The position numbers and the translations under genes were made by a program. DNA of 64,000 nt from positions 97,503 through 161,502 of IMG/VR virus record IMGVR_UViG_3300017774_006254. The stretch is one strand, 5' to 3'. The stretch's first letter is position 1. Each line of letters opens with the position of its first letter. Source of the DNA: a virus. The notes below the pieces were generated by a model, which made no database searches, had not been told where the DNA came from, and worked only from the letters and a program-made list of their open reading frames with translations. This document shows, piece by piece, positions 3,160-58,296 of this stretch.

Positions 3160-4407
3160 GTGACGGTGCATCAGAACCCGAAGATCGTATCTCTCTCTCC
3201 CAATAGGCCAGCAAGCGTCGACGTACGGGCGGCACTACTGGCCGCTCCTTCGTCATTTCTTGACAGCATCGGCCTGACGGTCGAAGACGTAGAGAGTATG
3301 GGAACACAGAGAGACCGCGTTCCTTCGATCGGCGAGGGGCACTACGCTCACGCGTACGCGCTCCCCAATGGCATGGTTCTCAAGGTCACAGACGACCCGG
3401 ACGACGCTGCCGCGGCTGACGTGGTCAGGAAGGCAAACGAGAGAGGAGAATTCCCAGTTGGCATCCTGCACGTCACTGCCGTGAAAAAGTTCAGGACGCA
3501 GGTCTACGAGAACGAGCGAGAACCGAACGAGCTTCGGGACATCTTCGCTATCGTATCTGAGCCTGTCATGTCGCTGAAGGATAGGATTTGGGGCGCGTTC
3601 CTTATGATCGGGCAGAAGCGCCGGTGGAAAGGGCGCGCAGACGGAATGCTCGTGAAACCGTTCTTCGGATACATGGTTCGCAATGGAATCAGGTCCATCG
3701 AGGAATTCCTTCGAGCGAAAAGCGACCACTCAAGCGACTACACAGACTTCGCGTGGACGCTGGCACTTGAAGCTCCTGAGGTCGTAGAGATCTTCGACGA
3801 GGTGCTAGAGGGTGCCCACTGGATGGCTGGCCACGGCTTTCAAGTAACTGATATTCACATGGGCAACTTTGGGGTCGCTGCGGGTGGGCGCACCGTGCTG
3901 TTCGACTTTGGGCACGGCTCTCGCCTCGATGAGACCGTGCATTCTGCGGAAAACGTCGAGCTGATGGCAAACGGCCCGATGAAGCGCGTGGTCGCCGCCT
4001 TCGACGAGTGCTTCGCCGTCCTCGTGAAGGAATTCCCAGACTTCGGGAAGATCGAGCTTGTGAACGACGAGAAGGCTGGCTCGGACAATGGGCATGGCTC
4101 GGAGCGCCAGTTCGGATACTGCATGGACGGTCCGACCATCCGCATCGCGTTCGCCGCGAAGACAGACGCCCTGCCAGTCGCAAACATCCGCGGCCTGATG
4201 GCTCACGAGTTCGGCCACGCCATCGATTTTAGGTACGGAGGCAAGCTGGGCAAGATGCTCGGACAGCGCCTCCCAGGGGGCATAGAGCGCCGCGCAGACG
4301 CCATCGCGAAAGCAGTATTCGGTCGCACCATCAAGTACGACGGGAAAGACGTGCAATGCGTGGCGTGCCAGGGCGTCAGCGTGCGACCGCGCAGGCTGGG
4401 CGCGTGA
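3160..4407 (+). CDS. Protein-kinase-like domain fused to zincin metallopeptidase-like domain
   Basis: GEGHYAHAY Gly loop, VLKVT, DIHMGN, LFDFG; C-terminal AHEFGHAID...ERRAD. Confidence 0.75.
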   Translation: MTVHQNPKIVSLSPNRPASVDVRAALLAAPSSFLDSIGLTVEDVESMGTQRDRVPSIGEGHYAHAYALPNGMVLKVTDDPDDAAAADVVRKANERGEFPVGILHVTAVKKFRTQVYENEREPNELRDIFAIVSEPVMSLKDRIWGAFLMIGQKRRWKGRADGMLVKPFFGYMVRNGIRSIEEFLRAKSDHSSDYTDFAWTLALEAPEVVEIFDEVLEGAHWMAGHGFQVTDIHMGNFGVAAGGRTVLFDFGHGSRLDETVHSAENVELMANGPMKRVVAAFDECFAVLVKEFPDFGKIELVNDEKAGSDNGHGSERQFGYCMDGPTIRIAFAAKTDALPVANIRGLMAHEFGHAIDFRYGGKLGKMLGQRLPGGIERRADAIAKAVFGRTIKYDGKDVQCVACQGVSVRPRRLGA

Positions 4408-4434
4408 GCGTGGCGGATGCGCTAGGATAGACGC

Positions 4435-4974
4435 ATGCCTAACGCGTTGGTTTTTGGAGACAGCACAGCAGGAGCCCCCGGCACAGCGGCGGCGACGGTG
4501 CTTCGAGCTAACGGTTACCAGGTGACCGTCATTCACAATGATGGGAAGTCGCCAATCGTGCAGACTCGTGCGCCGTACTGGGCTCAGTACGTCAACGCTG
4601 CTCGGGGAGCGGATGTGGTGCTGCTCATCTTCGGCAGTAACAGCTCAGCGAGCACAGCGCATCGTGTCGCCCTGGAGAAGCTGCGTGATGGTGTGAGGCC
4701 ACCGGTCTTGATGAGCGGTCCGCCGATCTACAACGCCGAGCGACGGCCAATTGGTGACGCGCTTCGAGCGATGAACGCGCAGGTCTTCGGCCCTCGGTAC
4801 ATTGATGCCTATCCGCACACGTCGCTGTCTCTTCCGCGAGCGCCGGACGGTGTGCATCTGACAGCTGCGGGGGCGGTGCCGTGGGGAACGGCGATGGCTC
4901 GGGGCGTGATGGACTTCATGGCAGATCCCAGTTCGTACCCTCGCGTGGGAGGCGCCTCCAGAAACCCTACCTGA
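4435..4974 (+). CDS. SGNH/GDSL hydrolase
   Basis: FGDS block I, GSN block III, DGVH block V. Confidence 0.8.
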   Translation: MPNALVFGDSTAGAPGTAAATVLRANGYQVTVIHNDGKSPIVQTRAPYWAQYVNAARGADVVLLIFGSNSSASTAHRVALEKLRDGVRPPVLMSGPPIYNAERRPIGDALRAMNAQVFGPRYIDAYPHTSLSLPRAPDGVHLTAAGAVPWGTAMARGVMDFMADPSSYPRVGGASRNPT

Positions 4975-5028
4975 GCACCAGCGGACTGCTTCTCGCTGGT
5001 GCCTTGGTTCTGGGAATCGGGTGGTTGC

Positions 5029-6957: not shown

Positions 6958-7019
6958 CGGGCGATAGTGCTTGAACTGTCCGACAAAGGCAAACCCGTTC
7001 GAATCGGCTAGCATTGGGC

Positions 7020-7727
7020 ATGTCATACGCGACGAAGCGCACATCTCTTGGGCAGGTAGACGTTGGTAGCGCTCCTGGTGGAGGTGTCATCCGAAGCAAG
7101 AATGGCTTTTCCTACCAGCTGACACCGGAGGATTTGCTTTGGCTCGCGCGGTCCGTGCAGTACGAAGCGGGCAATTATGCGGCAACCGCCTGGACCTACG
7201 CGCAGCGCCTTGCAATGGCACGCGGAAGCAGTCTCAAGAACCTCGTGCAAGCGCATAGTCAGCCTATCAACCCCATCTGGCGTCGGGACGGTGACAAGTG
7301 CCGTCCAGGCGGCACGTATCATGGCCGCGACGAGTGCTCTGAGCGCAGGCTTGCCGTGCGCGATCAAGCCGCCTCGCTTCCCTGGACCAGCGTGCGCCCT
7401 GAAGTTCGCGAAACGATTGTGAAGTTCGCGACGGGGCGCCTGCCAAATCCTGTCCCTCGCGCTGCCAACTTTGCGAATGCGCCAGTCACACAAGGCTATC
7501 TCTCGCGCAACCCCGACTCAGCTATCGTGCTGCGCGACGGCAACTGGTACATCACCGAACGGGCAACGAACTCTTGGCCAGCGGATTTCGTGACCATCGA
7601 AAGCGACGGGCGAATCGCCGGACCCGCAGTTGCCGTCGGAGCAACCGTTGTCGGTGCCGTGGGGGTTGCGGCAGCGGCGAGTTTTGCCTGGTGGGCTTAC
7701 TCGACGAAGTATAAGAAGCGAAGATGA
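7020..7727 (+). CDS. Putative cell-wall hydrolase (SleB/Hydrolase_2-like) with C-terminal TM and basic tail
   Basis: DLLWLARSVQYEAG resembles the catalytic Glu helix; TM followed by KYKKRR. Confidence 0.55.
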   Translation: MSYATKRTSLGQVDVGSAPGGGVIRSKNGFSYQLTPEDLLWLARSVQYEAGNYAATAWTYAQRLAMARGSSLKNLVQAHSQPINPIWRRDGDKCRPGGTYHGRDECSERRLAVRDQAASLPWTSVRPEVRETIVKFATGRLPNPVPRAANFANAPVTQGYLSRNPDSAIVLRDGNWYITERATNSWPADFVTIESDGRIAGPAVAVGATVVGAVGVAAAASFAWWAYSTKYKKRR

Positions 7728-9614: not shown

Positions 9615-9662
9615 TGTGTCGAAAGTCGTTGCTATGTAGTGGCCCGCGAAGTACCATGGGGA

Positions 9663-10776: not shown

Positions 10777-12276
10777 ATGAGCTACAGTCACAGCCTCGGG
10801 GCCGGTCTATCAGCGCCACTGCTCTCCGCTTCGAATGCGGTGTTGCCGAAGAACACCCTGTCGGTGGCTCCGAAGGCTGCGACTGCGCCTGTGTCAACGG
10901 ATCCGTTTCAGATTGTTCCACCAGAGTGCAGCCGCATGCGTCCTACCGGCACCAGCATCTACCCCACGATTGCTGCGGGTCAGATTGCTATGTTCACTTG
11001 GCCGTATGTGACGCTGGATGACGTCCAGGTTCGGTCTGCGCTTGATGCCATCGTTGGGAACGGTTCACAGGGCGGAGGGCCAGCTGTACTTGCGGGTTTG
11101 GTGAGTGCTGTCAGCTCAGCCGTTGTTGCGACGTCTACCGCTCAGACAGGGCAGGTGACGTCCGACGCTGTGCGCGCAAGAGCGGTCGCCCTTGCTCCTG
11201 CTTTTTTGGCAGCGGGTTTCATCAGAGATGCCGAGGTGAATCAGTCGGTCACGCGGGGGTACTTGTGGATCGCTGCATCTTGGACTGCGGCTCAGAATGT
11301 CAACGAAGCGAAGCGAATCGTGACGTCTGTTCTGAGGTCCGCGCTTCCTCCTGATGCTCTGTGGACGGGAGCAACGCTTCCATCGGGGAAGGTCAAGGCG
11401 ATCTCGGGACTTGTCACGGCAGTGGCGAACGAGTCGGACGTTGCGCTTGAAGCTGCCGCGAAGGAGTCGGTAGTCAGTTTCGTCGAAGCCGCGAGCGCTC
11501 TGGCTTCGGTTGTTGCCACGGTGCTTGGTGGAAGAACCGTATCGAGCGCTGCGGTGGCTATGCGAAACGAGTTCAGCACTTCGTCCGAGAGGATGAGGAA
11601 AGCTGCTTTGGCCATCCAGTCGGCCACCAGCTTGGTCGGTCAAGTTGAGGCCGTGGCTGCGGCGGCGATGGCTCTCCCGGCTGAAGCGCAGAATACGGCG
11701 GGCATTGCGCTACAGGAGATGCAGCAGCGTCTCCGAGAGAGCAAGAGTTGGATCACGGACGGCATGCAGAATGCGCGTTCCGTTCTGGAAACCTGTGCGC
11801 AAGAGACCAACGGAACGGGAGGCATCGCTCGTCGTCTTCGAGATCTCGTGTACGAAGATGCCCGAGCGACCATCGATCGACGAGGCGTACCTACGGTGGC
11901 ACGTGAGTACGCAAAGTGTCAGCTGTGGAAGCGGGCTCAGCAGCAGCTGGACAACGAGCTTCGAGGCCTGGCCGCAGAGCTGAGCGGCGCATGCACTGTT
12001 GCTGGCGGCCTCATTCAGAATGGCAATTCACTCGAAGCTTTGATCGCGACTGTCGACGCCGCACTTGCTCGTCTCGACTTCGTCATCTCTCAGCTCCGGA
12101 TGAACTGGTGGTCGCGTGACTACATGGGAGTACCAGTCGGCTACTGGATTGGTGGCGCATCTGCGATTGCTCTGGTTGGTGGCGGCCTTGTGATTCGGTC
12201 CATCAAGCGAAGGAGAGCGACAGCTGCGCCACCCAAGCCTGCGCCAGTATCCAAGAACAGGAGGAGATCTCGATGA
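10777..12276 (+). CDS. Ala-rich helical membrane-anchored protein, probable virion component
   Basis: MSY..SLGA start; C-terminal TM followed by VSKNRRRSR. Confidence 0.7.
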   Translation: MSYSHSLGAGLSAPLLSASNAVLPKNTLSVAPKAATAPVSTDPFQIVPPECSRMRPTGTSIYPTIAAGQIAMFTWPYVTLDDVQVRSALDAIVGNGSQGGGPAVLAGLVSAVSSAVVATSTAQTGQVTSDAVRARAVALAPAFLAAGFIRDAEVNQSVTRGYLWIAASWTAAQNVNEAKRIVTSVLRSALPPDALWTGATLPSGKVKAISGLVTAVANESDVALEAAAKESVVSFVEAASALASVVATVLGGRTVSSAAVAMRNEFSTSSERMRKAALAIQSATSLVGQVEAVAAAAMALPAEAQNTAGIALQEMQQRLRESKSWITDGMQNARSVLETCAQETNGTGGIARRLRDLVYEDARATIDRRGVPTVAREYAKCQLWKRAQQQLDNELRGLAAELSGACTVAGGLIQNGNSLEALIATVDAALARLDFVISQLRMNWWSRDYMGVPVGYWIGGASAIALVGGGLVIRSIKRRRATAAPPKPAPVSKNRRRSR

Positions 12277-13654: not shown

Positions 13655-14000
13655 CATTCTGAAGAAGCCTGGTGTTGTTCTGGTCCTGGCGATGGCGATC
13701 TTGCTCCTGGTCGCACTGGCTGCGACGGCGTTCCAAGGCTGCCACTGCTCGGGGACGCCCGCTCTAATCGTCACGGGAATTGATGCGGGGCCTGGAGAGC
13801 GCATCATCGAGGACAGGCTTGACGCTCGCGTCCAGCAGTTGTCGGTGCGCATTGAGCAGATCGAAGAGAAGTTCTCAGACGACCTAGCGGCTTTCGATGC
13901 GCAGCAGCGCGCTGAGTACGAGCGCTTGCGCGAAGGTGAAGACCTGGAAGCCGCAGCACGAATGCTGTCTGATTGGAATCGGCACCGGACTCGCCAATGA
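13647..14000 (+). CDS. Membrane/lipoprotein-anchored coiled-coil protein (spanin-like candidate)
   Basis: N-terminal TM ending FQGC, then coiled coil. Confidence 0.5.
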   Translation: MPDILKKPGVVLVLAMAILLLVALAATAFQGCHCSGTPALIVTGIDAGPGERIIEDRLDARVQQLSVRIEQIEEKFSDDLAAFDAQQRAEYERLREGEDLEAAARMLSDWNRHRTRQ

Positions 14001-15331
14001 AGTACAGCTTCCGCGAGTTCTCGGATGCATTACCGAAGTCGATTGTGGCACTTGCCCAGGCCAACACCTACGAGGTGCTCAGTCATCCGCGTCTCATCTT
14101 GATGCACGCGGCGGAAGAAGTGCAAATCTTCCTGGATTCCCGTTGTCGCCAGTATCTACCCGAAGCACTACGAGTCCTGCCGAATGACCCTGAGGCCAGG
14201 TTCGACTCTGCGCATGATGATAGACGGTTGATATTCGCAGCTATCGGGGCTCTTTGCGACGAGGGTTTTCAGCCTTTTGCAGCAAATCTAGCTCCGCCGC
14301 CAGATCATGAAGTAGCGGGACTATTGCCGGACATAGGCTTGCTCATTCAGCTGGTTCAACAGGATGAGCCTCTGTACCAGGAGCAAGCAAGCCGGTGGCT
14401 CGTCGCTGCGCATTTTTATGAGCAGTTCCGTGCCTACCTAGAAGAGAGCCCGGGCTTCTCTGAGTCCAGCTTGCGCATGACGCCAGAGCAAGCGGCCATT
14501 GGAGTGGGAATTATCAACAAGTGGTGGCCGTGGGTTGAAGCGATCGAAGCGGCCTCCAAGTCGGGCGAATGGGTCGACTGGAAAGGCCTTGGCGCGTCTG
14601 GTCTTCATCCGAACGCGAGAGCGACAAGTTTTCGCAAGTTGCTCGCCAGCCTTCCCGAGCCGCTGTCCGGGCCGTTGCGCGTCAAAGATGCGCGCGAGTC
14701 GCTCCAACGATGTGGGAGCGAAGCGCTGTCTACGGCGGCGATCATATGCCGTGCGTCCAAACCGGATGCACTGCGAAAGGCCATCAGCGAAACCGCGCTC
14801 ATGAGAAGCGATTTTGAGTTTCTTACTCGCTTCACGTTTGCTGCGATTGCCCGTCTTTCCGATGAGGGCTTTCAGCCGTTCCTTTCCAGTCTGACACCTC
14901 CAAACGATCCCGGGTTTGACGAGTTCTTACCGAGCGCTGACGCGTTGATTCGCCTGGTGCAGCAAGACGAGCGCCTGTATCAGGAGCAAGCTAGCCGCTG
15001 GCTTGTGGCAGCTCATTGCCACGCGCAACTGCGCGCTTACAGCAAGGACAACCCTGAATGCTTTCTTGGTCATTCATACGACAATCTGATGACCATCGAG
15101 CAGGCTGAGGGCTTGGTTGCCATTTTGAACAAATGGTGGCCGTGGGTCGCAATCTGCGACAAGGCGATCTCGACCGAAGGCACCTATGACCCTGCTCGGC
15201 GCTTGCGGGATGGAACGACCAACTACATCGACTGGAAGCATCTTTTTGGCGCTACCGAACTTCGTCCGAATGCAAGACGCACGAGCAAGCGCCGCCGCAC
15301 AAGCAGACGCTCCTCCAGGCGTGTAAGGTAG
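13997..15331 (+). CDS. Tandem two-domain repeat protein with Arg/Ser-rich tail
   Basis: DEGFQPF..LVQQDExLYQEQASRWLVAAH..NKWWPWV present twice; tail RRTSKRRRTSRRSSRRVR. Confidence 0.8.
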   Translation: MKYSFREFSDALPKSIVALAQANTYEVLSHPRLILMHAAEEVQIFLDSRCRQYLPEALRVLPNDPEARFDSAHDDRRLIFAAIGALCDEGFQPFAANLAPPPDHEVAGLLPDIGLLIQLVQQDEPLYQEQASRWLVAAHFYEQFRAYLEESPGFSESSLRMTPEQAAIGVGIINKWWPWVEAIEAASKSGEWVDWKGLGASGLHPNARATSFRKLLASLPEPLSGPLRVKDARESLQRCGSEALSTAAIICRASKPDALRKAISETALMRSDFEFLTRFTFAAIARLSDEGFQPFLSSLTPPNDPGFDEFLPSADALIRLVQQDERLYQEQASRWLVAAHCHAQLRAYSKDNPECFLGHSYDNLMTIEQAEGLVAILNKWWPWVAICDKAISTEGTYDPARRLRDGTTNYIDWKHLFGATELRPNARRTSKRRRTSRRSSRRVR

Positions 15332-17321: not shown

Positions 17322-17531
17322 TCACCTGTGTCGACGGCGACGCCTGTTCTTGCTCATCGCTCTTGCCGGAAGGAAGAGGAGCGCGGCGCCCAGTCCCGCA
17401 ATCAGCAGGCCCGTTCCCCACCTTGACTGACTGACACCCTCACCAAGGCCGTTCATGCCACAGCCGCATCCCTCCAAACCCTGCAACGGAAATCGGGTGC
17501 TGCGCATACCTGTGTTCTGCGTGTAACTCAT
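17322..17531 (-). CDS. Small TM protein with Arg tail (probable virion membrane protein)
   Basis: MSY start, GLEGCGCGMNGLGE, TM, MSKNRRRRRHR. Confidence 0.7.
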   Translation of the reverse strand: MSYTQNTGMRSTRFPLQGLEGCGCGMNGLGEGVSQSRWGTGLLIAGLGAALLFLPARAMSKNRRRRRHR

Positions 17532-17620: not shown

Positions 17621-18832
17621 ATGCGAATTCTAATGGCCACGAACACATATCTTCCCCATGTTGGCGGTGTAGCCAATTCTGTCGACAGAATGGTCAGAAG
17701 CCTTCGAAAGATGGGGCATGACGTCCTTGTCGTGGCGCCTGGGGACAGCGCGATGGCACCCATCTATCTCGATGATGAGCACGTGGTGCGGATGCCTGCA
17801 CTCGCTTCTGTCGCTGGCAGTGGATTTGCCCTCCCCCTGCCGACGGCCGAAAAACTGACGGCGATCATCGCCGCATTCGATCCGGACATCATCCACTCGC
17901 ACCACCAATTCTCGCTTGGAAAAGCCGCGCTCACGGCGGCTCGCCTTCTTCAGAAGCCCATCGTCGTCACCGTTCACACGTTCCTTGAGAACATGGTCAC
18001 GAGCTTCAAGTCGCCGATCAAAACATCGCCGTCAACAAAGATTGTTGCGGCAGCCGCTTCGTTCCTGGGGATGGCCACGTTCCCGATTTTCTATGAGAAC
18101 CAGTGTGACGCGGTGCTCGCGCCAACCGATAGTGCAGCCAGGCTTCTTCTTGAAAGAGGGGTCACGTCTCCCATCTACATCACGCCGTCGGGCATCGACG
18201 CTGACATGTACGCGCGGCCTGACGGCGCTCCGGTGAGAAAGAAGTACGCGATAGATCCAGGCGCGTTCGTAATCGGTCACGTTGGCCGACTGTCGAAGGA
18301 GAAGAATCTCATTCTTCTTGCGAATGCGATGGCCATCGCTCTGGCCGACAACTTCGGCACCCGAGCTGTCATCGTGGGAGACGGGCCCTGCATGGGCGAG
18401 ATGAAGGCAATCTTTCAGCGGCGTCGCGTCGGGGCTCGTGTGCGCTGGCTTGGCGTGAAGCGTGGCCAAGATCTGGCGAACGCATACGGAGCTATGGACG
18501 TGTTCGGCTTTGCTTCGGTCATCGAAACCCAAGGCCTTGTCCTGGCTGAGTCAATGGCGGCGAGTACGCCTGTCATCGCGCTGGATGGACCAGGCACGCG
18601 GGACATCATCCGCAGTGGGGAGAACGGCCAATTGGTCTCCGAGTTGAGCCCGGAGGCGCTCGCAGAGGCGATGATCGATTGGGCGAAGATTCCTCGGCCA
18701 GAACGAGTCAGGAGGCGTGCTCAGGCAAGGGCTACTGGGTTCGATTACGCGCTTGAGAAAACCACAGCGAGACTCGTGTCTGTGTACATGCGGGTTGCAC
18801 ATGATGTCAGACAGCGAGTACAGTCGCGCTGA
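17621..18832 (+). CDS. Glycosyltransferase family 4 (GT-B)
   Basis: MRILM..YLPHVGGV, VGRLSKEKN, ETQGLVLAESMA. Confidence 0.92.
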   Translation: MRILMATNTYLPHVGGVANSVDRMVRSLRKMGHDVLVVAPGDSAMAPIYLDDEHVVRMPALASVAGSGFALPLPTAEKLTAIIAAFDPDIIHSHHQFSLGKAALTAARLLQKPIVVTVHTFLENMVTSFKSPIKTSPSTKIVAAAASFLGMATFPIFYENQCDAVLAPTDSAARLLLERGVTSPIYITPSGIDADMYARPDGAPVRKKYAIDPGAFVIGHVGRLSKEKNLILLANAMAIALADNFGTRAVIVGDGPCMGEMKAIFQRRRVGARVRWLGVKRGQDLANAYGAMDVFGFASVIETQGLVLAESMAASTPVIALDGPGTRDIIRSGENGQLVSELSPEALAEAMIDWAKIPRPERVRRRAQARATGFDYALEKTTARLVSVYMRVAHDVRQRVQSR

Positions 18833-19245
18833 TGTCAGACGAAGACTTGAGCCCTCCACCAGCGAACACCGGCGACGCCTACAGGCTCGTCTTCCTGAAG
18901 ATTGACTCTGAAGGTGTCATCTCGATCAGCGGTTCGGTCAGGTCTCTCACTACGAAGATCTACGACCGGCGGACAGCGATTCGCTTCGCGGCGCATGAGA
19001 TTCAAGAAGCGCCAGTCGGGGTCGCGGAACAGATCGTGGCTGTTGTTGGCCCGAACGGGAGAGCGCTCGCGGTGCTCGCGGCAAGCGGGAAGCCGGTTCG
19101 AGCTGCTCTTGCTCTGCGAACGAAGCGAGCGCTTTCTGGGCTCCTTCCTAACGACATTCAGCCGCGACGCCGAACGAGCCGGACGCCTGTCGATCGCCTG
19201 AGCAAGGGGTCCGAGGCGAAGCGTCGCACGTCGAGACGGGCCTAA
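18832..19245 (+). CDS. Hypothetical protein with RRTSR-rich tail
   Basis: C-terminus PRRRTSRT...KRRTSRRA. Confidence 0.65.
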   Translation: MSDEDLSPPPANTGDAYRLVFLKIDSEGVISISGSVRSLTTKIYDRRTAIRFAAHEIQEAPVGVAEQIVAVVGPNGRALAVLAASGKPVRAALALRTKRALSGLLPNDIQPRRRTSRTPVDRLSKGSEAKRRTSRRA

Positions 19246-19280: not shown

Positions 19281-19676
19281 ATGCTTGAGCCCATGCATGT
19301 GAACCCCTCTCCCGCAAGCGTTCAACCGTACGTCCCCTCGCTGTACCTTCCAGGGAGCCTCGGACGCTTTCGTCAGTACCCTCGGCGCGTCGTGACGCCT
19401 ATTCCAGGCGCGGGCTACAACGTGGGCCGAGGCGTGTGGGGAGAGCAGGTCTTGTACCTCGGCGGGTACGGCGACCTGTTCCGTCGAGGCCGCTCGTACC
19501 CGTACGGCAAATACGCTCAGGTGCCATTGCGTGGCATGGGACAGGTTCCGACTTCGCCTTGGTACATGAGGGGCTGGGTCTGGGCTCTCGCAGGAGGAGG
19601 CTTGGCTGTCCTTGGCGCTGGGTCTTACATGGCCCTTCGCAAGAACGGTCGCAGCCGTCGCAGGAGAGCGCGATGA
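19281..19676 (+). CDS. TM protein with Arg tail (probable virion protein)
   Basis: LRGMGQ, TM, LRKNGRSRRRRAR. Confidence 0.7.
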   Translation: MLEPMHVNPSPASVQPYVPSLYLPGSLGRFRQYPRRVVTPIPGAGYNVGRGVWGEQVLYLGGYGDLFRRGRSYPYGKYAQVPLRGMGQVPTSPWYMRGWVWALAGGGLAVLGAGSYMALRKNGRSRRRRAR

Positions 19677-20122
19677 GCTACGCATCCAAGAAGTATTGGA
19701 ACGAGTACGCAAGTGCTTGCCAAGGGATGGCGGACGAAGGCGCGTGCTTGAACCGAGCGATTCAGCATGGGGCGTCTGTGACGTTCGCGGCGAGCGGCAT
19801 GGGCCAGGTGCCCGTGCAGACCGTCCAGCAGGGCATCGCCACAGCTGCGAACGTCTCGGAGATCACTGTTCAGCTCTTGCGCAACCCTGAGATGTTTGCG
19901 TCGCAGCAAGCGCCTCGAATCGTCAATGCGCTCGACACGTACATCGTGACGCCGTTAGTCGACCGAGCTGCGGACAGAGCCACGCCGTACTTCGTGCGCT
20001 ACGTGATGCCGCCGCTGGCGGTGCTGTACGTGCTGTCTGGTCTCGCGGCTTTCTACAGCTACAAGGTTTTGGAAGGTCAGCGAGACCGAAAGGTGTCGCC
20101 GAACCGTCGTCGACGCAGGTAA
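19673..20122 (+). CDS. TM protein with Arg tail (probable virion protein)
   Basis: MSY start, SGMGQ, TM, VSPNRRRRR. Confidence 0.72.
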   Translation: MSYASKKYWNEYASACQGMADEGACLNRAIQHGASVTFAASGMGQVPVQTVQQGIATAANVSEITVQLLRNPEMFASQQAPRIVNALDTYIVTPLVDRAADRATPYFVRYVMPPLAVLYVLSGLAAFYSYKVLEGQRDRKVSPNRRRRR

Positions 20123-20702: not shown

Positions 20703-21053
20703 ATGTCGTATCACTTGGGCCCGAGTCCAATTCCGCAACCACTGGTGCGGCCGAGGTACACGGCCCCACAGCCTGTGTACGAGTTCCTGCCGCTGGCACA
20801 AGTTCCTTCTCAGCCCACAGGGCTGGTTCTGGACGCGACCACGAAGCGCGTTCTCATTGCGGTAGGGCTGTTCTTGCTCGCCGTGGTGCTCTTCTACGTG
20901 TTCCGAGGTAAGCCGCTTGCGAAGAACCATCGCCCAATCAAGCGGGCCTCGACGCCAGAACTTGCGAAGAATTTGTACGACCGACTTGAGCGACGCGGGG
21001 GCGCGAACGAGGCGACGATGCGAAGTCTCAAAGCGTACTCAAGAAAGAAGTAG
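20703..21053 (+). CDS. TM protein with basic C-terminus (probable virion protein)
   Basis: MSYHLG start, TM, LAKNHRP. Confidence 0.7.
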   Translation: MSYHLGPSPIPQPLVRPRYTAPQPVYEFLPLAQVPSQPTGLVLDATTKRVLIAVGLFLLAVVLFYVFRGKPLAKNHRPIKRASTPELAKNLYDRLERRGGANEATMRSLKAYSRKK

Positions 21054-26834: not shown

Positions 26835-27152
26835 TCAAGCGCGGTGTGTGGCCGTCCACACGTAGTTCGCGACCCAGCAAATCGCAGCCCCTGCAAAAGC
26901 CCCCATCAGCGGGGCTTTTTTGCTGCCTCCAGCAGCCATGGACCCCACCGCGCCCGCGATGGCACCGCCCACAACAGCCGCCTGTGTCCCCGCGTTCATC
27001 GCGCCAACGAGACGAGTCCGGAAGGCATTGCTGACGGCGGTCGGGTCGCACATGGATGACGTGAGAACCTGGCCCATGCCCACATGGCGCAGGTTGGCCT
27101 TCATGTCTCGGATCATCCACTCGGGAACGTCTGTTTTTGACTTGTAGCTCAT
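26835..27152 (-). CDS. Small glycine-zipper TM protein (probable virion protein)
   Basis: MSY start, MKAN, VGMGQ, two GxxxG-rich helices. Confidence 0.68.
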   Translation of the reverse strand: MSYKSKTDVPEWMIRDMKANLRHVGMGQVLTSSMCDPTAVSNAFRTRLVGAMNAGTQAAVVGGAIAGAVGSMAAGGSKKAPLMGAFAGAAICWVANYVWTATHRA

Positions 27153-34576: not shown

Positions 34577-35317
34577 TCATCCAAGCAGGAAGTCGAAGAT
34601 GACGTCGGACATCTTCTTCTCGTCGACTTCGATGAGGTTTGCTCGCTCGCGAGCTTCCTTCACGGACTTCATCAGGAAGTCGGTCCTCTGAAGGATCGCG
34701 GTCTTGTGACTCTGCACGATCGCGCCGCTCTGCGCGATGGTCTTCCACGTGCCGACGGTGATGTCCTCGTCGATCAGCTGGGACTGAGCTGGGTGCTCTT
34801 TCGTGGGAGGCACAAGGACGATGGGCTTCTTGATCTTCTTCGTCTTGATGGTCTCGATGGGCTTGGTGACGTAGACGCGCTCCACAGCGTCGTACTCCCA
34901 TCGCTGAGCAGGGTCGAGCACTGGGAGCTTCTCCACGAAGGTGTGGATGTCGGAAAGCTGCTTCTCCAAGAACAGAAGCGTTGGGACCGGCACGTCCTTG
35001 ATCATCACGACGCCGCCGGGGCCGAGGATGTCCGCCATGGTCTTTGTGTTGCCGACGTCCTTCGTGAGCGTGATGTCGAACAGCTCGCGCTGCCTCTCCT
35101 TCACCTCGGCGAGAGCGTCCATGACTCGAATCGACACGAACTTGGACTCGGGCGGGTACTTCTCGCCGTCTTCTCCCTTCGGCTCGTACGTTTTGATCAT
35201 GCCGGTCACGGCGTCAGCACGCTGGAGGAGGACGTGCTCCTTCGACAGTTCCTTGTAGGCGCGCGTCTTGATGTCGCGCTCGACAGCCACGATCTGATTC
35301 AGCTTCTTCTTGCTCAT
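34577..35317 (-). CDS. Conserved-looking hypothetical protein (KLNQI.AVE type)
   Basis: ATG at 35317; sits between tRNA-Lys and the tRNA-mimic RNAs. Confidence 0.8.
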   Translation of the reverse strand: MSKKKLNQIVAVERDIKTRAYKELSKEHVLLQRADAVTGMIKTYEPKGEDGEKYPPESKFVSIRVMDALAEVKERQRELFDITLTKDVGNTKTMADILGPGGVVMIKDVPVPTLLFLEKQLSDIHTFVEKLPVLDPAQRWEYDAVERVYVTKPIETIKTKKIKKPIVLVPPTKEHPAQSQLIDEDITVGTWKTIAQSGAIVQSHKTAILQRTDFLMKSVKEARERANLIEVDEKKMSDVIFDFLLG

Positions 35318-40874: not shown

Positions 40875-43800
40875 AGGACTTTCTCCTCGGTAATTTCGAT
40901 GCGCAGCACGCTGCCATCAGCGCCGCGCTCGCTAACCCAGGAGGTCGGTGTTTCCTCAGTCCATCTTGGAGAAGTCACGCGGTGCCTTGTGACTTGTTGC
41001 TGAGCGGAGTCGATCGTCGAGTGCAGGGTAAGGGGCCCTTCCCCCAGCAAGATGTGCTTCCTCCCTGCTGGTGACAGCTGGTACCTCTTCAGGGTTACAG
41101 CGAACACCAAGGCGGAGACAGGTGGAACGCTCGCGTTTGCTACTGGCTCCCAGTCGCTAAGCCTGATGCGGACGATAGCGGCCTTGCGCGGCCACCAGGC
41201 CGTCCACCATCCAGCGCTTGAATTCGTATCAAGCTCTCGCAGCACAAGCTCCTCGTTCTGGCTGACGTGCTCTGGCGAGTAGATTGGCTGGTGGAGTTCG
41301 ATGATCTGGTTCGGACCTGGCTTGCGCGGGCGAACTCGGCGCTCTGGAGATGGCGATGGCTGAGCGAAGATTTCCCTCAGTGCACCTCGACCAGATCCAG
41401 GCCGTCCGTCCTTCCCGCGGTCCGTAACAACCAAGTCGTAGCTTCTGATCGTGGCCACGCCGTTGGCATTGGGAACGACTGCACGAGCCTCTGCTTCTGT
41501 TGCGAACACGTTGTTGAAGTGCCCATCGACCGTGACGACGAACATCTTTGTCGTATCGCTTGGGAAGCGAGCCACGAACTCGCGAGACTTGATTTCACTG
41601 TCCCCAAAGACGCCCTTGCAGTCCAAGAAGAACTCGAACACGCATTCATCTTCTGGGTTCGGGGATGGTGGTGCCACAGGCGGAACGCCTGAGGGGGTAC
41701 CGCCGTAGTAGCTGACAGCGTTCTTCGGTTCCTCGGTCTCCTTCTTTAGCCACTTGGTGTACGCAGCAAGCGCGATGTCAAAGTCAACGTGTACGCGGCC
41801 CCATCCGATCTGGATGATGTCCAAGCTGTACTCGCCCGATGAAACGAACTCGCAGATCGAGCGCAGGAATTTTGCTGAGTTGTCCTCAAGCACCTGCGCA
41901 CCTGGCTCCGCATCCAAACCGAGCACTAGGCGCTCATGCGTGCAGCGAAGCAGCTCTCGCTGAACCATGTACGCGCCGTCGTGGTAGCCCATGACGACAC
42001 CGCGCGAGCCGTCTGGCATCTTCACGAGCGTCCCAACGGTGAGCACGTGATCACCTCGCTTCACCTTGGGGAACTTCCCATCCATGATCTCAGGCATGAG
42101 GATCGCGGGGACGAGCGCTCGGTTGATCTTCGCTGCGATAGCGTCACCCTGGCGGATGCTGTCCAGCCCATGGCTGAGGTCGTAGGCCATGGTATGAGTG
42201 ACGCGCCGGACCGTGGGAGTGCTTGGGCGCTTGTAGTTCTCTGACATGTAGACCATGTAGACATGCGGTTCGAAGTACGTCGCACCGGTTGCAGGTGCTA
42301 CGAACAGGTCTCCCACACGAGCAGGCTTCTTCAGTGAGGAGCCCTTGATGAACTTGTTGCAGTAGTCACTGCTGACGAGTTGGTCGTAGACGTCCTTGGG
42401 ATCGTCGGCTTTCTCTCTGGGTGCCTGGCGTGCCTGGCTTGCGACGATAGAGACGGCTTCGATGGCTTCGATGAGAGCTTGGTTTTCACTGCCTTCGTCT
42501 TCTTCTGGGTCACCTTCTTCGTCAGACGGCTCGGCAGGTGGCTCAGGACTGGGCTCGGGCGGCACGTCGGTGGTGGGCGCGTTGACGAACTGAAACAGGA
42601 ACGTCTCGCTTCTCGTTGTGATGCGACCGCGCGAGTCGTTGTCCAGGAGCAGTTGCCAGTGTGTGTCCTCGACCGGCTTCGCGATGCCGCTGGCTTTCAG
42701 GTCGTAAAGGTCTCTCAAGACGCCGCCGTGTATGACGCGACCGCGCATGCTGTCCGTGAAGTTGAGAACGCGCTGGCCTTTGACGGCTGGGAACAAGACG
42801 AACGTTCCTGCGGGCCGTGTAGCGTGCCAGTGAATGGACTCGGTCGTGACGAAGTCGTTCTCCTTGTCAGTCCCGACTTTCACGGACATCTCTGGCTGAA
42901 AAGTGCACTCTTTGATGCGGTCAGCGGGGTCGTTCTTGAACATGCCGACGCGCAACAGCTTGGGGCTCGGAGCTGGCTCGGGGTTGGACTCGGGAGTCGC
43001 GCGCGAGAGTTCGTTGAGGCGCGCAAAGTGGTCGGAGGCGTTGTAGGTCGTCTCCGGCACAGCGGTGCCTTCTGGCTTAGCGTCGGGAGCAGGTGCCGGA
43101 ACGCTGACGAACTTGAAGGCCGCGGTTACGTGGCTGTCGAGTTCCAGTAGGCCATGCATGTCCTCGGTCAGACCGATCACCCAGCGCGCCCCGTCGTTCT
43201 TGGCAACGTTGTCTTCTCGCAGGCCTTCCAGGTCGCGAGTGATGGAGCCTGCTCCGACGCGCCCACGCGCATGCTCAGTGAACTGCAAGGTGCACCCATC
43301 GGATGTCAGGCGAATGGCAATGTGCTCAGAAATCGACACGTACTCGATGATCTGGCCCGGTTTGTAGTCGTCTTCTTTGACAAGCTTCTTGTCCTTGAAG
43401 AAGCCGACGCGCAGTTGCTTCGAGGGCTGGTTCTGGACGGCGGTATCTGGTGCGGGCGTGATGGGCACTTGTTTCTCCTTCGAGTGGGCGGCGAGCATGG
43501 TGGTGAGTTCAGAACGGGTGACGCGTAGTTCGTTGACGAGGGCGTCGGCGGCTTCTTGCGGGCTTCCGTGACCCGTTACCGTGATGCCCGTAAGTCGAGG
43601 CCCGTACTTGTCGCGCGTCTTGAACGAGGCGCCCCAGGTGTCGGTGCGGGGGCTGTGAAACACGACGGTTTCCCCGGGCCTCTCTCCGCTATGCCCGCAG
43701 TAGAAGCGGCCGTGCTCCTTCCCCATCTCTTTCCCGAGGAAGAACACGGGGCCTCGCTCCTTGCCCACGAGTCTGTCCAGCGCTTGCTTCTGAGGCGGCG

Positions 43801-45655
43801 CGACGTGGGCGATTCTCGCCGTGGCGATTTCGATCTTGTTGGAGCTGACCACGAGCATGACGAGGCCTTGGTTCAGCAGCTCGAACAGGAACTCTCGTCG
43901 ATCGGGCCAGATGACCTCGTGGATGAAGCCATCGCGACTCATCTTGGTTCCAAAAAGGTGCTCCCACATCGCCGCCGCCTCGGCGCTGACGTCGATCACT
44001 TTGGAGGTGTGACCAGCGGGGAATGCACCGCACCAGAGCGTGTCACCGCGCTCAAAACGCATATTGTCGCGCGTGTAGCGGAAACCGGCGACAGGGGCTT
44101 TTACTGGCGCTTCCTCTTCTGGCCCGTCAACTAACACAAGCTTCTCGAAGTGGTCTTCATGCGCCTCGAACGCTTCGGATGACATGTGGAAAGTCTTGCC
44201 CGGGCGCTCGGTACATCGAACCCAGAATTCTTCGTTATCGTTGATAGGCGGGTGACGCAGGTCTTTGAGATTCACCGTGAAGGTCGTGCCGTCGCAATTC
44301 ACCACGTCAGCTTCAGATGCGTTGACCAGTCTCACGACGTGGCAGAGTTCGGCTCGGAACCCGGTACCAAAGAGCACTGCGTCGCCTGGTTCGAAGGCGA
44401 ATGTTGTGGTTTCTGGGGTAGTTACTGCGCGCACGGTCACTTCGTCGTTGCGCCAGTACCTCGTTCCCCGGTTTGTTTCGACCGTCAGATGGCCCCCTCT
44501 GGCGTCGGTGACCACGCCAGAATTCCCCGATCTTTCCACGGTGTCTCCGACTTTGATCTCTTGGAGGACTGCGGGGGCAGGCGTTGAGGGGAAGTGCGTG
44601 ACGACGGGGACGAACTTCGAGACGCGGGCCATGTCGGATGTGGGCATCACGAAGAAGCCGTCTTGCGGACGCTCAGGACATCGAACCCAGTCGCCCTCGC
44701 GAACGTCAGGGCGCCGCAGGAACTTCGGCTCGATCGCCTTCGTGGTAACGCCGTTCAGGTCTGTGATGTCGACGCTGGAGCCAGCCAGACTCACGCTCTT
44801 CACGACGTAGCGAGTGGCTCCGTCGAGGTCGAGCGTGGTGACAATGTCTCCAGGCTCGAAGTCTGCGCTCGCAGCCTCTTGCTTTGGCGGTGCGACTCGA
44901 ACGTAGTAGATGCGCTGCTCGTGAAGGTCTGCGCTAAACGAGACAGGAGCCTCTCGGGGATAACGGAGATCACGAACCCAGTCGTTGACGCTGAGAGGAG
45001 CGTGCCGAAGGTCTCCGGGGCTTATGTACACCTCGCCACCGTTCACGCTCAATGCGTCCTGGCCAAGCTTTCGAATCACGACAGATTCTTCGTAGGCACG
45101 CGTGACCACAAACTTGGCGGCAACCTCCACCGGCAGAGTGCCTGTCACGATGTCGCCAGTCTTGAACCCGTGCGCATAATCTTCAGGCATCGATTCGACT
45201 GGAAAGCCAGCTCGCTTGTTCCAACAATCCTCACTCTCGATCGTCACGACACCCGGCGAGATTTCAGCCGTCAAATAGACACCGCCACCATGCGGGATTC
45301 CAAGGTGCGCCATGAGGTGCGAAGGAAGGCGATGGAGCCCGTTTTCCGTGACGTGCGATACGCCGATTCCGCGAGCGCCGATCGACGTCTGCTTTCCGTC
45401 GACAATTTCGTTCAGAAAGCCAACAGCCTCATCCCAGGTGCTGGCCTCCCAGGTGGCAGCCGTCAGCTGAGCTGGATCCCCAAGGCCGTCGGCCCGAGCC
45501 CGAGCCTCGGAATAGCGGCTCAGAAAATAGGCCCTCAGCCTTTGCAAACGGCGCATCAGGCGGCGCGTGGCGTAACGTCTCGATTTCATTGGGTATCTCC
45601 GGATTGAGCTGGGTGCCCAGGGTAGGCGCGTACCATATGACACCGCCTGGCCCAT
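40871..45655 (-). CDS. Giant (~1590 aa) modular protein with SH3/KOW-like repeats
   Basis: FxxGDxV..LR.P..WVR module three times; LRVG.FK..FT..RGRV..RDL module twice; Pro-rich linkers. Confidence 0.85.
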   Translation of the reverse strand: MGQAVSYGTRLPWAPSSIRRYPMKSRRYATRRLMRRLQRLRAYFLSRYSEARARADGLGDPAQLTAATWEASTWDEAVGFLNEIVDGKQTSIGARGIGVSHVTENGLHRLPSHLMAHLGIPHGGGVYLTAEISPGVVTIESEDCWNKRAGFPVESMPEDYAHGFKTGDIVTGTLPVEVAAKFVVTRAYEESVVIRKLGQDALSVNGGEVYISPGDLRHAPLSVNDWVRDLRYPREAPVSFSADLHEQRIYYVRVAPPKQEAASADFEPGDIVTTLDLDGATRYVVKSVSLAGSSVDITDLNGVTTKAIEPKFLRRPDVREGDWVRCPERPQDGFFVMPTSDMARVSKFVPVVTHFPSTPAPAVLQEIKVGDTVERSGNSGVVTDARGGHLTVETNRGTRYWRNDEVTVRAVTTPETTTFAFEPGDAVLFGTGFRAELCHVVRLVNASEADVVNCDGTTFTVNLKDLRHPPINDNEEFWVRCTERPGKTFHMSSEAFEAHEDHFEKLVLVDGPEEEAPVKAPVAGFRYTRDNMRFERGDTLWCGAFPAGHTSKVIDVSAEAAAMWEHLFGTKMSRDGFIHEVIWPDRREFLFELLNQGLVMLVVSSNKIEIATARIAHVAPPQKQALDRLVGKERGPVFFLGKEMGKEHGRFYCGHSGERPGETVVFHSPRTDTWGASFKTRDKYGPRLTGITVTGHGSPQEAADALVNELRVTRSELTTMLAAHSKEKQVPITPAPDTAVQNQPSKQLRVGFFKDKKLVKEDDYKPGQIIEYVSISEHIAIRLTSDGCTLQFTEHARGRVGAGSITRDLEGLREDNVAKNDGARWVIGLTEDMHGLLELDSHVTAAFKFVSVPAPAPDAKPEGTAVPETTYNASDHFARLNELSRATPESNPEPAPSPKLLRVGMFKNDPADRIKECTFQPEMSVKVGTDKENDFVTTESIHWHATRPAGTFVLFPAVKGQRVLNFTDSMRGRVIHGGVLRDLYDLKASGIAKPVEDTHWQLLLDNDSRGRITTRSETFLFQFVNAPTTDVPPEPSPEPPAEPSDEEGDPEEDEGSENQALIEAIEAVSIVASQARQAPREKADDPKDVYDQLVSSDYCNKFIKGSSLKKPARVGDLFVAPATGATYFEPHVYMVYMSENYKRPSTPTVRRVTHTMAYDLSHGLDSIRQGDAIAAKINRALVPAILMPEIMDGKFPKVKRGDHVLTVGTLVKMPDGSRGVVMGYHDGAYMVQRELLRCTHERLVLGLDAEPGAQVLEDNSAKFLRSICEFVSSGEYSLDIIQIGWGRVHVDFDIALAAYTKWLKKETEEPKNAVSYYGGTPSGVPPVAPPSPNPEDECVFEFFLDCKGVFGDSEIKSREFVARFPSDTTKMFVVTVDGHFNNVFATEAEARAVVPNANGVATIRSYDLVVTDRGKDGRPGSGRGALREIFAQPSPSPERRVRPRKPGPNQIIELHQPIYSPEHVSQNEELVLRELDTNSSAGWWTAWWPRKAAIVRIRLSDWEPVANASVPPVSALVFAVTLKRYQLSPAGRKHILLGEGPLTLHSTIDSAQQQVTRHRVTSPRWTEETPTSWVSERGADGSVLRIEITEEKVL

Positions 45656-56390: not shown

Positions 56391-56941
56391 GAGCCCTGCT
56401 TGCTGAGCACGTACGTTCCACGACCGAACGAGCCCGCGCTCAGGCAAACCTGAAGAGCCATGAGCATAGTAAGGTGAAGCGCCTTCGCGTCGGCATCACT
56501 CATCGCGCTGTGATGCGCCAGATCCTTGATGCTCTTGAGCACATCTCGATCGCCGTACGGCGCCTTCATGTCGAGCGAAGGCGCGCCGTGTTCCCAGGGA
56601 GCGGATGGGTCTGAGAAGGCATTGTGCTCGGCATCGCCCCAGTGTCCCCAGTCAATGCGCATGTTCCGAAGGAGCGCCACGTGCGACGCCGTCATCTGGA
56701 ACTCATAACGATCAGCGTATTCAAGCTGACCGTGCGCTGTCACCGCGAGAGGTTCTTCGGAGCGTCGAATCATCTGCGAGATGTCTTGGAGTCGGTCCAA
56801 ACGAAGGCGGCACTTTTCGAACGACCGAAAGGTTTCCTGCTTGATCTCGGAGAGCCTTCCTCTCACAGACAACCACTCTGGCTTGTCGCCGGTGGTGCGT
56901 ACGAACGACTCAAGTGCGTCGATGGCTTTGTCGATGTCCAT
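56366..56941 (-). CDS. Hypothetical protein (paralog of 54956-55282)
   Basis: HVALL..PSLDMKAPYGDRD..LH...ALQVCL..GSF..GTY. Confidence 0.7.
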   Translation of the reverse strand: MDIDKAIDALESFVRTTGDKPEWLSVRGRLSEIKQETFRSFEKCRLRLDRLQDISQMIRRSEEPLAVTAHGQLEYADRYEFQMTASHVALLRNMRIDWGHWGDAEHNAFSDPSAPWEHGAPSLDMKAPYGDRDVLKSIKDLAHHSAMSDADAKALHLTMLMALQVCLSAGSFGRGTYVLSKQGSGTWERVL

Positions 56942-57252
56942 GCGCCGAAAGTACAGCGCGTCAGACAGCTAGTCAACAATCTTTCTACACACCCGTGTCG
57001 CGACGTCGGCGAAGAACGCGGTGCGCTCTGGGAATGAGCGGGCGCAGTCCTCGGGGTCCATTGCCTGGTCATGGCAGACTGGGCAGGACATGTCTGTCCA
57101 CGGACTGCTGGACTCGCGCTCGTCGGCGAGGTGAAGTAGTTCGTTGATCATCGCCTCGCGAGCTTCCTTGCGTCGCGCACCCTTCACGCGAGAGCGAAGC
57201 TGGCGGCCCGTGTGAACGCACTTGAGATGCTTTGAAGGAAGATGCTTCATGG

Positions 57253-58296
57253 TCAGCGCCAGCGAGATGGTCGAGTCCTGTACCCTTCGACGCGTTTCCT
57301 GTCAGCCGCACTTGGGATGCGAGGAGGCTCTTTGCAGCCTCTGCATCGAAGCGAGCTGAGCTGAGTTGCTTTCTTGACCGTCATGCGAAACGCCGTGCCA
57401 CAGCACAGGACGTCAATCGTGTCCGCGCGTGTCCTCTTGAGCCCTTCTCGCGACACGGTGTGGTAGGCGGAAGGCTGGCGAATGCCCATGGCACGCATCT
57501 GCTTCTTCCAGGCTTCGCCGTGCTGCACGCCGAAGGTGCGCCCTTGGAAGGCCTCTACGACCGCATGGGCCACCTCGTGGATCACGACCTCTGCGCGCTG
57601 CGTAGGCGTTGCGCGCTCCCAGAGCGGTCGCGAGTAGCTGATCGTTCTGCTGCGGTAGTTCACCTTGCCCATGGCTGAGGTTTGGGCATCGCTGAACTTC
57701 ACAGCGTACGCCCGAGGGACCATCCAGCGTCGAAGTAGACGCTGCGTGTCTGCGATCGCCGTCGCCTCGCTACTCTTGGCTGGTTTCCTCGCAACGCCAC
57801 TGGACACTCGACGCACAGGCTTCCTGGAGGACGTTTTCTTCTTGGACGTCTTTCGAGGAGAGGCCTTGCGAGACGGTTTCTTGCGTCGCGAAGTCCGGCG
57901 TCCATTCCAGAGCATGCGCCCGGTGCGACGGCGTACGATTCTTGGGTTGATCAGTTCGACATCGGAGAACCATACGGCTTCGTGCCCTTCGGGACCTCGA
58001 CGATCGTCGGGCTCTCTCGCGTCGAACTCGATGAGCACGTTCTCTTCTTCCGGGAATGCACCGAAGTAGACAGAATGCTTGCTGTCCGCCCAGTCCATCG
58101 CCTGGTCACCGATAGTTGCTGACCTGGTGTCGCCTGCAAACACAGCGGGTCTCCCCTTGTACTTGTACGCGGGACGAGCCAGTAGCTTTCCCGATTCAAG
58201 AATCTGCTTCGCGAAGTCGCCGCGCGTTGCGTGGTAGTACGGGTTCCTGGCGACTCTTTTGCGCGACGTGCGACGCGGTTTCCTGGAAGTTCGCAT
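57253..58296 (-). CDS. Basic leader + putative ADP-ribosyltransferase-like domain + histone-like linker + SprT-like metalloprotease
   Basis: YYHAT..ILESG.L (ART-like); HEVAH...HGEAWK and C-terminal Cys cluster (SprT-like). Confidence 0.7.
   Translation of the reverse strand: MRTSRKPRRTSRKRVARNPYYHATRGDFAKQILESGKLLARPAYKYKGRPAVFAGDTRSATIGDQAMDWADSKHSVYFGAFPEEENVLIEFDAREPDDRRGPEGHEAVWFSDVELINPRIVRRRTGRMLWNGRRTSRRKKPSRKASPRKTSKKKTSSRKPVRRVSSGVARKPAKSSEATAIADTQRLLRRWMVPRAYAVKFSDAQTSAMGKVNYRSRTISYSRPLWERATPTQRAEVVIHEVAHAVVEAFQGRTFGVQHGEAWKKQMRAMGIRQPSAYHTVSREGLKRTRADTIDVLCCGTAFRMTVKKATQLSSLRCRGCKEPPRIPSAADRKRVEGYRTRPSRWR

Follow-up and report, generated by a model that had tools for sequence, protein, structure and literature searches.

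Introduction

What does a tetrapeptide made of a hydrophobic residue, two variable residues and asparagine do when it recurs at borders within viral proteins that are mostly unrelated to each other? This question is raised by the last 64 kb (G000:C1:97503-161502) of IMG/VR record IMGVR_UViG_3300017774_006254, a complete genome of 161,502 bp with direct terminal repeats that belongs to an uncultured bacterial virus. The stretch of 64,000 nucleotides is called the window here, positions are counted from its first letter, and genes are named by their lower coordinate. An initial annotation had listed 12 places in the window where hydrophobic-x-x-Asn marks a domain boundary or the start of a basic tail, and had read them as an Asn-specific cleavage or sorting signal that splits polyproteins, releases Arg-rich peptides and serves as a loading code for virion-delivered enzymes. 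Here, we show that this signal is real. Selection acts on it at the protein level, it depends strictly on Asn, is conserved in diverged relatives and lies on module borders. That it is also a processing site, with the Asn at or next to the scissile bond, is the best reading of the sequences, and one that falls a little short of being probable. Throughout, an arrow stands after the Asn, at the place of the putative cut.

Results

The motif at the start of oligo-arginine tails

Genes were called with a codon-usage model trained on the same genome, which gave 240 genes (89% coding), 103 of them in the window. These calls are crude for short open reading frames (ORFs). All 12 cited strings are present in the named genes, with the qualification that MSKN↓RRR (17322) sits on the minus strand, at the end of a 69-aa ORF that the caller missed. 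Two relatives were used for comparison, namely G001, a whole genome of 171,466 bp and 66% G+C (the window has about 59%), which has 43 of the 104 window proteins in common with inverted synteny, and L017 (CAZXLQ010000001.1, 78.8 kb), a contig with a more distantly related version of the cluster of genes that carry the motif.

By itself, [LMV]xxN has no predictive value as a marker, and the frequency of [LMVI]xxN is at chance. The window proteins contain about 130 [LMVI]xxN tetrapeptides, and Leu, Met, Val or Ile stands three places before (-3) 24-26% of Asn vs 21-25% of other residues. Two rules with a basic context were then scored for L/M/V/I at -3: a composite rule, in which Asn is followed by at least four Arg or Lys in eight residues, and a strict rule, in which Asn lies directly ahead of an oligo-Arg run. 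Over the whole genome, the hydrophobic residue was found for 19 of 30 Asn by the composite rule, compared with 124 of 546 (23%) other residues (Fisher P 4.9e-6), and for 11/11 by the strict rule, compared with 21/102 (P 2e-7). The window alone gave 6/12 (P 0.039) and 4/4 (P 0.005), respectively, and G001 provided an independent replicate (29/49 vs 148/817, P 9e-10). In the position preceding an Arg run, Asn moreover occurred at three times the expected frequency. An enrichment at protein N-termini was dropped as evidence, because it is confounded by Met1, which itself supplies the hydrophobic residue. In the resulting consensus, -3 is L>M>V>I, -2 and -1 are small, basic or Pro, the Asn is invariant, and the next residue is R, G, P, A or S.

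The same signal is kept in homologues. A cluster at about 10.7-21 kb encodes small proteins with an MSY start, a G-[LM]-G-Q tag, a transmembrane (TM) helix and terminal arginine runs (Table 1). For 19673, the tail Asn is invariant in 33/33 homologues (35-99% identity) and is never Asp, Ser, Thr or Gly; -3 is always V, L, M or I, and the x-x positions and the tail length differ. Its G001 orthologue has ISAN↓RRRRRVRR. At the places of the 19281, 19673, 17322 and 20703 sites, L017 has LRAN, VRAN, VRRN and MSRN. The orthologues of 19281 end in LRKN↓RRRVRRN↓RRRGSRR in G001, where the motif stands in tandem within the Arg tail (N↓RRRVRRN↓RRR), and in LRAN↓RRRRRS in L017, and those of 17322, which are unlike it in their middle parts, end in VTPN↓RRRRGRGRRRR and VRRN↓RRRRHR, respectively. 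In 20703, where LAKN lies past the TM helix, G001 has VTRN↓HRPVKRVS and L017 has MSRN↓KAARKLS, so that the Asn and the hydrophobic residue are kept and x-x changes. No sequence homologue of 10777 was found; the gene at its position in G001 ends in VRRN↓RRSERRTSRR, and the VSKN instance is thus suggested by position, plus the statistics. An M23 peptidase just upstream of the window bears its own MQPN↓RRR tail.

The TM helix and the motif are separated by 3 to 24 residues, and the motif therefore tracks where the Arg run begins and not where the helix stops. The Arg codons of the tails are mixed, which argues for selection on the protein, and a repeated DNA cassette was rejected as the origin of the tails. 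In two tails, the Arg codons (AGG AGG AGA; AGG AGA; 12256-12276 and 19656-19676) double as the Shine-Dalgarno sequence of the downstream gene, which overlaps by ATGA at 12273 and 19673; as an explanation of the tails, a Shine-Dalgarno by-product was rejected because it is true of these two only. As a separate observation, a 75%-identical pair of orthologues (7020-7727 and G001 78567-79322) differs only at the end, which reads ...STKYKKRR without the motif in the window protein and ...VKRN↓RRRGR in that of G001; thus, the motif is gained and lost along with the oligo-Arg tail.

Of the 12 cited instances, ten were kept, nine of them (MSKN, LRKN, VSPN, LAKN, LHPN, LRPN, LMAN, VARN and MLWN) by alignments of orthologues or homologues and VSKN as described above. 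LLPN in 18832 was rejected, as the aligned G001 orthologue has LMPG, and so was MKAN in 26835, which lies in a non-conserved N-terminal stretch without counterpart in the G001 orthologue. We also rejected LLRN↓PE within 19673, which the initial annotation had not cited: Asp replaces Asn in 4/32 aligned homologues, unlike the invariant tail Asn, the pattern N/D-P-E/D is conserved, and the site is probably a helix N-cap. Overall, an Asn-specific portable signal at the start of Arg-rich tails is borne out by composite enrichment in two genomes and by homologue conservation.

The motif on module borders of polyprotein-like chains

The other half of the proposal, that the signal lies on module borders, held in the 3160, 13997 and 57253 families. 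The protein of 3160 joins a kinase-like domain to a minimal zinc peptidase module. In 76/88 multi-domain relatives, [LMVI]xxN occurs at most 15 aa ahead of the peptidase module, compared with 9.2% of control windows in the same proteins, and the motif stands before this module in 22/25 upstream contexts that are unrelated by BLAST. When the family was compared all-against-all by BLAST, the starts of alignments piled up at -3 of [LMVI]xxN and their ends at 0/+1, and no breakpoint spike was seen for seven control tetrapeptides. The positional enrichment at boundaries that had been named as a check was thus found in this family. Stand-alone peptidases begin 2-6 residues past the place of the Asn, and in the G001 orthologue, two further modules stand between kinase and peptidase, both with the motif at their borders. 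At the junctions, Pro is the commonest residue at -1 (28/76), and the residue after Asn is P, G or R, then S/A/K/T. An AlphaFold2 (AF2) model of residues 255-415 of 3160 gave a predicted local distance difference test (pLDDT) value of 90 for the peptidase module, and LMAN, the only site modelled, fell outside the fold, in a linker of low pLDDT and three residues ahead of the first helix.

The G001 orthologue begins MPKIVSLTAN↓R. An N-PK[IL]V...N element occurs at 40 places in the 3160 family (P0017-P0115), some of them N-terminal (MRRN↓PKIVSL...) and others immediately ahead of peptidase modules. Its spacer follows the pattern N↓PK[IL]V(S/G)(L/F)...AAAG-L-x-P-N↓ (3175-3204) and is flanked by two Asn sites.

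The 13997 family offers a border of a different kind. Gene 13997-15331 encodes a 444-aa protein that arose by tandem duplication, with halves that are 45% identical, and its unit is a single gene of 244-275 aa in relatives. The junction Asn is the exact point at which the two copies are joined, and the sequence that follows matches the N-termini of single-copy proteins. Single-repeat homologues (P0002-P0004) stop at the matching ...L-x-P-N plus an Arg tail. Across five sequences (38-60% identity), D-W-K-x-L-G-A-x-x-L-x-P-N is invariant and the tails vary.

In the 57253 family, a module named here PYYHATR has hydrophobic-x-x-Asn on both sides in five architectures. At the upstream junction, Asn is invariant and -3 is V/V/L/M/L, and the upstream sequences are unrelated: a basic leader in the window, Met alone (MVRRN↓PYY), a HicA-like module with LVMN↓ at its end, a chain of three repeats (P0009), every one ending ...RR[LIM][RK]PN↓, and an unrelated domain ending LLRKN↓. 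The downstream junction M/L-x-W-N is invariant in five homologues, and it is followed by an Arg tail that closes the protein, by a HicA-like module, by some other module or by the linker to SprT. P0007 and P0008 share a set of modules whose order is permuted between them, with the junction motif retained. Minimal leaders such as MVRRN↓P or MRRN↓P are retained by some proteins.

Most SprT-like relatives (P0010-P0015) end in L/I/M-x-P/A-N plus a short peptide, mostly Cys-bearing, and the separate SprT gene of G001 (170286-171233) ends likewise (IRPN↓SCRCG...). The window copy (57253-57300) and its 92%-identical relative are without this end. From these sequences, self-processing of most SprT-like relatives at their own C-terminal motif is possible. 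The Cys-bearing ends mostly hold one to three Cys, for example QICGCSDH and SCRCGAHALECG...

Candidate enzymes

If the motif is cut, two small zinc peptidases of the virus, the SprT-like domain of 57253 and the minimal gluzincin of 3160, would be candidates for the enzyme. Both are single-copy and present in G001. In 60 sequences of the 3160 peptidase module, H95, E96, H99 and E122 (H-E-x-x-H...E) are invariant. Pfam and Protein Data Bank (PDB) sequence searches gave no named family for it, and Foldseek gave weak zincin matches only. The nearest folds of the module are abylysin (Z 8.1, root-mean-square deviation 2.7, 92 aligned) and human SPRTN (Z 7.5); at these middling Z values, the model supports a small alpha/beta zincin as the fold class but no particular family. 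For the PYYHATR module, AF2 gave a poor model (pLDDT 58). In a protein-language-model look-up, its nearest named clusters were Arr-ms (rifampin ADP-ribosyltransferase) and Tox-ART-HYD1 (0.94), from which the label ADP-ribosyltransferase (ART)-like is tentatively taken. In relatives, this module is part of a block of structural genes, where it is joined to other modules and a TM anchor and not to SprT. The view that the carriers are enzymes is true for some only, namely the kinase-zincin fusion, the ART-like/SprT fusion and the M23 peptidase upstream of the window. The complete genome had no match to Transglut_core (Pfam).

Table 1 Coordinates of the motif-bearing features and of related sites in the window.
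Feature	Position	Strand	Basis or remark
Kinase-like domain and minimal HExxH zinc peptidase, three motif copies	3160..4407	+	Weak Pfam ABC1-like match
N-terminal element VHQN↓PKIVSLSPN↓, two Asn sites around PKIV spacer	3166..3204	+	
LMAN↓ at kinase/peptidase junction	3961..3972	+	
VSKN↓RRRSR tail, stop	12247..12276	+	End of 499-aa MSY membrane protein 10777..12276
LHPN↓ at fusion of the two tandem repeats of 13997..15331	14603..14614	+	Homologue alignment
LRPN↓ARRTSKRRRTSRRSSRRVR tail of second repeat, stop	15260..15331	+	Homologue alignment
69-aa MSY membrane protein ending MSKN↓RRRRRHR, stop	17322..17528	-	MSY...TM...MSKNRRRRRHR, stop
LLPN in 18832..19245	19141..19152	+	Cited, unsupported
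LRKN↓GRSRRRRAR tail, stop	19635..19676	+	End of 19281..19676
Internal LLRN↓PE of 19673	19874..19885	+	Uncited, rejected as member
VSPN↓RRRRR tail, stop	20093..20122	+	End of 19673..20122
LAKN↓HRPIKRAS past TM helix of 20703..21053	20916..20927	+	Orthologue alignment
MKAN in 26835..27152	27093..27104	-	Cited, unsupported
SprT-like zinc protease domain, candidate enzyme	57253..57756	-	Pfam SprT-like E 1e-11
MLWN↓ closing PYYHATR module, then Arg/Lys/Ser linker to SprT-like domain	57757..57915	-	
PYYHATR module	57904-58254	-	No Pfam match
Basic leader MRTSRKPRRTSRKR, then VARN↓ ahead of PYYHATR module	58243..58296	-	N-terminus of 57253..58296

Genome setting

Apart from the kinase-zincin fusion and the SprT-like protease, the window encodes an integrase, a UvrD helicase, a Dam methylase, a LexA-type repressor domain and four glycosyltransferases. 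A 1594-aa ORF, the 3160 peptidase module and the 19673 protein had no relative among GenBank phages. Searches with the single proteins 17621 and 57253 found no related loci in viral contigs, and the 13997-family alignment found none in viral and metagenome contigs. A 1572-aa ORF (40871-45589, minus strand) with a strong coding signal has no Pfam family, GenBank-phage match or G001 counterpart. The DUF7873 protein (34577-35317, minus strand; Pfam E 1e-84) and the Dam methylase (59796-60821, minus strand) have a third-position G+C of 0.81-0.84, compared with about 0.65-0.73 in the rest of the genes, and both are without G001 counterpart; they are likely recent acquisitions. The L017 contig is binned in a metagenome-assembled genome labelled uncultured Clostridia; given its G+C of 63%, it may be viral DNA placed in the wrong bin and no clue to the host.

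MSY is the commonest N-terminal tripeptide in this genome (15/241 proteins) and in G001 (20/269). In the window, MSY genes start at 7020, 10777, 12273, 17528(-), 19673, 20703, 27152(-) and 55282(-), and G-[LM]-G-Q usually follows within a few residues (MSYAGLGQ...). Short forms of the 19673 family start exactly at the second GLGQ. This pair of elements looks like a second tag, at the N-terminus.

Discussion

A processing site is the simplest account of hydrophobic-x-x-Asn, in view of a strictly Asn-dependent unit, disordered linkers, the exact borders of shuffled modules, minimal N-terminal leaders and tandem copies in Arg tails. It would then be a portable four-residue processing signal of a group of large uncultured bacterial viruses, placed in exposed disordered linkers where an oligo-arginine tail or leader meets the body, mostly of membrane-anchored MSY proteins, or between the modules of polyprotein-like chains. 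During assembly, the Arg tags would at first keep the proteins at the DNA core or the membrane. The chain would be cut at the Asn by a virus zinc peptidase (the SprT-like domain of 57253 or the gluzincin of 3160) or by Asn cyclisation, upon which the tags would detach and the fused modules would be set free. Only tentatively would we go on to propose that large tailless bacterial viruses have a maturation code of their own, in which a DNA-tethered zinc peptidase, SprT-like or minimal, or Asn self-cyclisation releases oligo-arginine peptides that condense DNA and frees enzymes from polyproteins. The location of the carriers in the virion and the delivery of enzymes, as expressed in the idea of a loading code, are suggested by context. 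Two other routes were rejected, namely ribosome skipping of the 2A type, which needs NPGP, the host moreover not being a eukaryote, and intein ends, as the sites have neither His-Asn nor a following Cys/Ser/Thr.

Several points weigh against processing. We infer the cut, the bond that is cut, the enzyme, the timing and the membership of the carriers in the virion. [LMVI]xxN is not depleted elsewhere in the proteome, and context must therefore matter; protein ends exactly at the Asn are not beyond chance in either genome, and the motif is missing from some basic tails. In the complete 161.5-kb genome, there was no match to adenain C5 (PF00770) at E<=1, and none to C13 legumain (PF01650) and the caspase-type C14/clan CD (PF00656), where a host enzyme is possible, or to the T4-type and HK97-type prohead proteases S77 and S78 (PF03420, PF04586). 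Zinc peptidases usually read P1', not P1. Pro follows the Asn at about a third of the sites, and the bond ahead of Pro is uncuttable for most proteases, which would favour Asn self-cyclisation, known from the lyase families reviewed in PMC3207474, over a protease.

The most serious competitor is an uncut address or docking signal, in which one shared partner (the DNA core, the membrane face, the shell or a scaffold) binds the motif and the Arg run, the motif is a hinge between body and tag, and the chains stay whole. A genome without a protease of matching specificity fits this explanation, as do tails that are always kept, with no orthologue ending at the Asn, and the TM helix just upstream in most carriers, which fits a tail that contacts DNA under the inner membrane. 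However, the motif also occurs without an Arg run at module junctions (LMAN↓GPM, LVMN↓PYY, LRPN↓QICGC), as a minimal N-terminal leader (MVRRN↓P) and in tandem within tails, all of which is hard to fit with one partner. We regard docking as rather unlikely. It is improbable that the Asn is chemically modified instead of cut, either by glycosylation at an unusual sequon or by an isopeptide cross-link to Lys. Strict Asn without exchange for Asp, Ser or Thr fits chemistry of the side-chain amide, Lys-Asn cross-links are known in HK97 capsids and pilins, and one (17621) of the four glycosyltransferase genes in the window lies within the carrier cluster; however, these enzymes are of the GT1/GT4 type, which to our knowledge are not protein N-glycosyltransferases, and modification gives no account of the exact position on module borders or of the placement before disordered tails.

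An ordinary capping or turn motif (hydrophobic, x, x, Asn, Gly/Pro) that ends helices before disordered tails and has no role as a signal is quite improbable. Asn-Gly and Asn-Pro are common helix stops, and the internal LLRN↓PE of 19673 is cap-like with its N/D exchange. In contrast, the tail Asn is unexchanged in 33 homologues, Pro is the commonest residue at -1, several sites come after Pro-rich, non-helical stretches (PPKPAPVSKN), LMAN lies in a low-pLDDT linker, and control tetrapeptides show no breakpoint enrichment. Chance combined with shared descent, that is, a few paralogous tails and a selective reading of a common tetrapeptide, is very hard to credit. The bare tetrapeptide is at chance, two cited instances fail, and LHPN and LRPN of 13997 are duplication copies of each other. 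Nevertheless, this explanation is largely refuted by the replicate in G001, a second genome of different G+C, by the 22/25 unrelated junction contexts and by the breakpoint test; in addition, the carriers are mostly unrelated proteins, and the mixed Arg codons exclude copies of one DNA cassette.

If the motif is cut, it delimits the mature proteins of a virus group that is so far undescribed, and small arginine peptides are predicted to condense DNA in a bacterial virus. It would then also offer a new protease specificity as a possible tool as well as a simple sequence rule for finding the tag-bearing proteins of these viruses. If it is uncut, it is still a compact transferable tag. Short codes by which particle proteins are loaded and then trimmed are found in adenovirus, T4 and a few giant viruses. 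To the best of our knowledge, asparagine is not the key residue in any of these codes, and tailless bacterial viruses with protamine-like cores have so far yielded no such code.

Compared with known systems, the motif has partial parallels. Legumain (MEROPS C13) has the same strict Asn at P1; there is no C13 or other clan CD homologue in the genome, and legumains are eukaryotic, archaeal or rarely bacterial enzymes of acid pH. Sortase and exosortase signals have the order motif, TM helix and basic cluster, unlike the order found here, which is TM helix, spacer, motif and Arg run. In phage T4, the internal proteins and Alt, an ADP-ribosyltransferase, have capsid-targeting sequences that are removed by the prohead protease gp21 after hydrophobic-x-Glu. 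There, too, a leader with a hydrophobic-x-acid/amide cut site loads enzymes and is then clipped, and the idea of loading followed by clipping is alike. In contrast to T4, no S77/S78 protease is present here, the residue is Asn and not Glu, and the oligo-Arg tags are mostly C-terminal.

Asparagine peptide lyases are a second comparison. They include the self-cleaving coat proteins of nodavirus, tetravirus, picornavirus VP0, picobirnavirus and reovirus as well as FlhB/YscU (N↓PTH), and the bond after a strictly conserved Asn is broken in particle maturation, with Asn↓Ala documented; the peptide that is freed in picobirnavirus remains with the nucleic acid (MEROPS N1, N2, N5-N8; PMC3207474). An invariant Asn is shared with our families (33/33 in the 19673 family, 5/5 on both sides of PYYHATR and 5/5 in the 13997 family). 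The lyases have a single site in one fold, with a partner Asp/Glu, whereas here a portable tetrapeptide is found in disordered linkers of dozens of unrelated proteins. Cleavage at Asn↓Pro is known in reovirus and FlhB/YscU.

By analogy, the closest system in logic would be adenovirus maturation, in which AVP (adenain), whose cofactors are viral DNA and the pVIc peptide, cuts proteins such as pVII, pre-Mu and pVI at sites of the form (M/I/L)XGX-G or (M/I/L)XGG-X (PMC4246237, PMC7998265). Both are short linear codes in which a hydrophobic residue stands four places ahead of the fixed one, and both have many unrelated carriers that include Arg-rich proteins, the adenovirus substrates being DNA-binding core proteins. 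In adenovirus, the enzyme and its substrates are held on DNA, and a short basic Cys-bearing C-terminal peptide is freed, which may be compared with the LRPN↓QICGC ends of SprT; the Cys peptide of the SprT-like relatives recalls the Cys-bearing pVIc cofactor. The differences are that the fixed residue here is Asn and not Gly, that -1 is P/K/R/A, and that the form (M/I/L)XGX-G or XGG-X is not encountered; there is also no adenain-fold gene, the host is bacterial, the candidates are zinc peptidases, and the cut is a putative one. With these differences, the maturation code tentatively proposed above would be a functional parallel to adenovirus maturation that relies on a new chemistry and a new enzyme.

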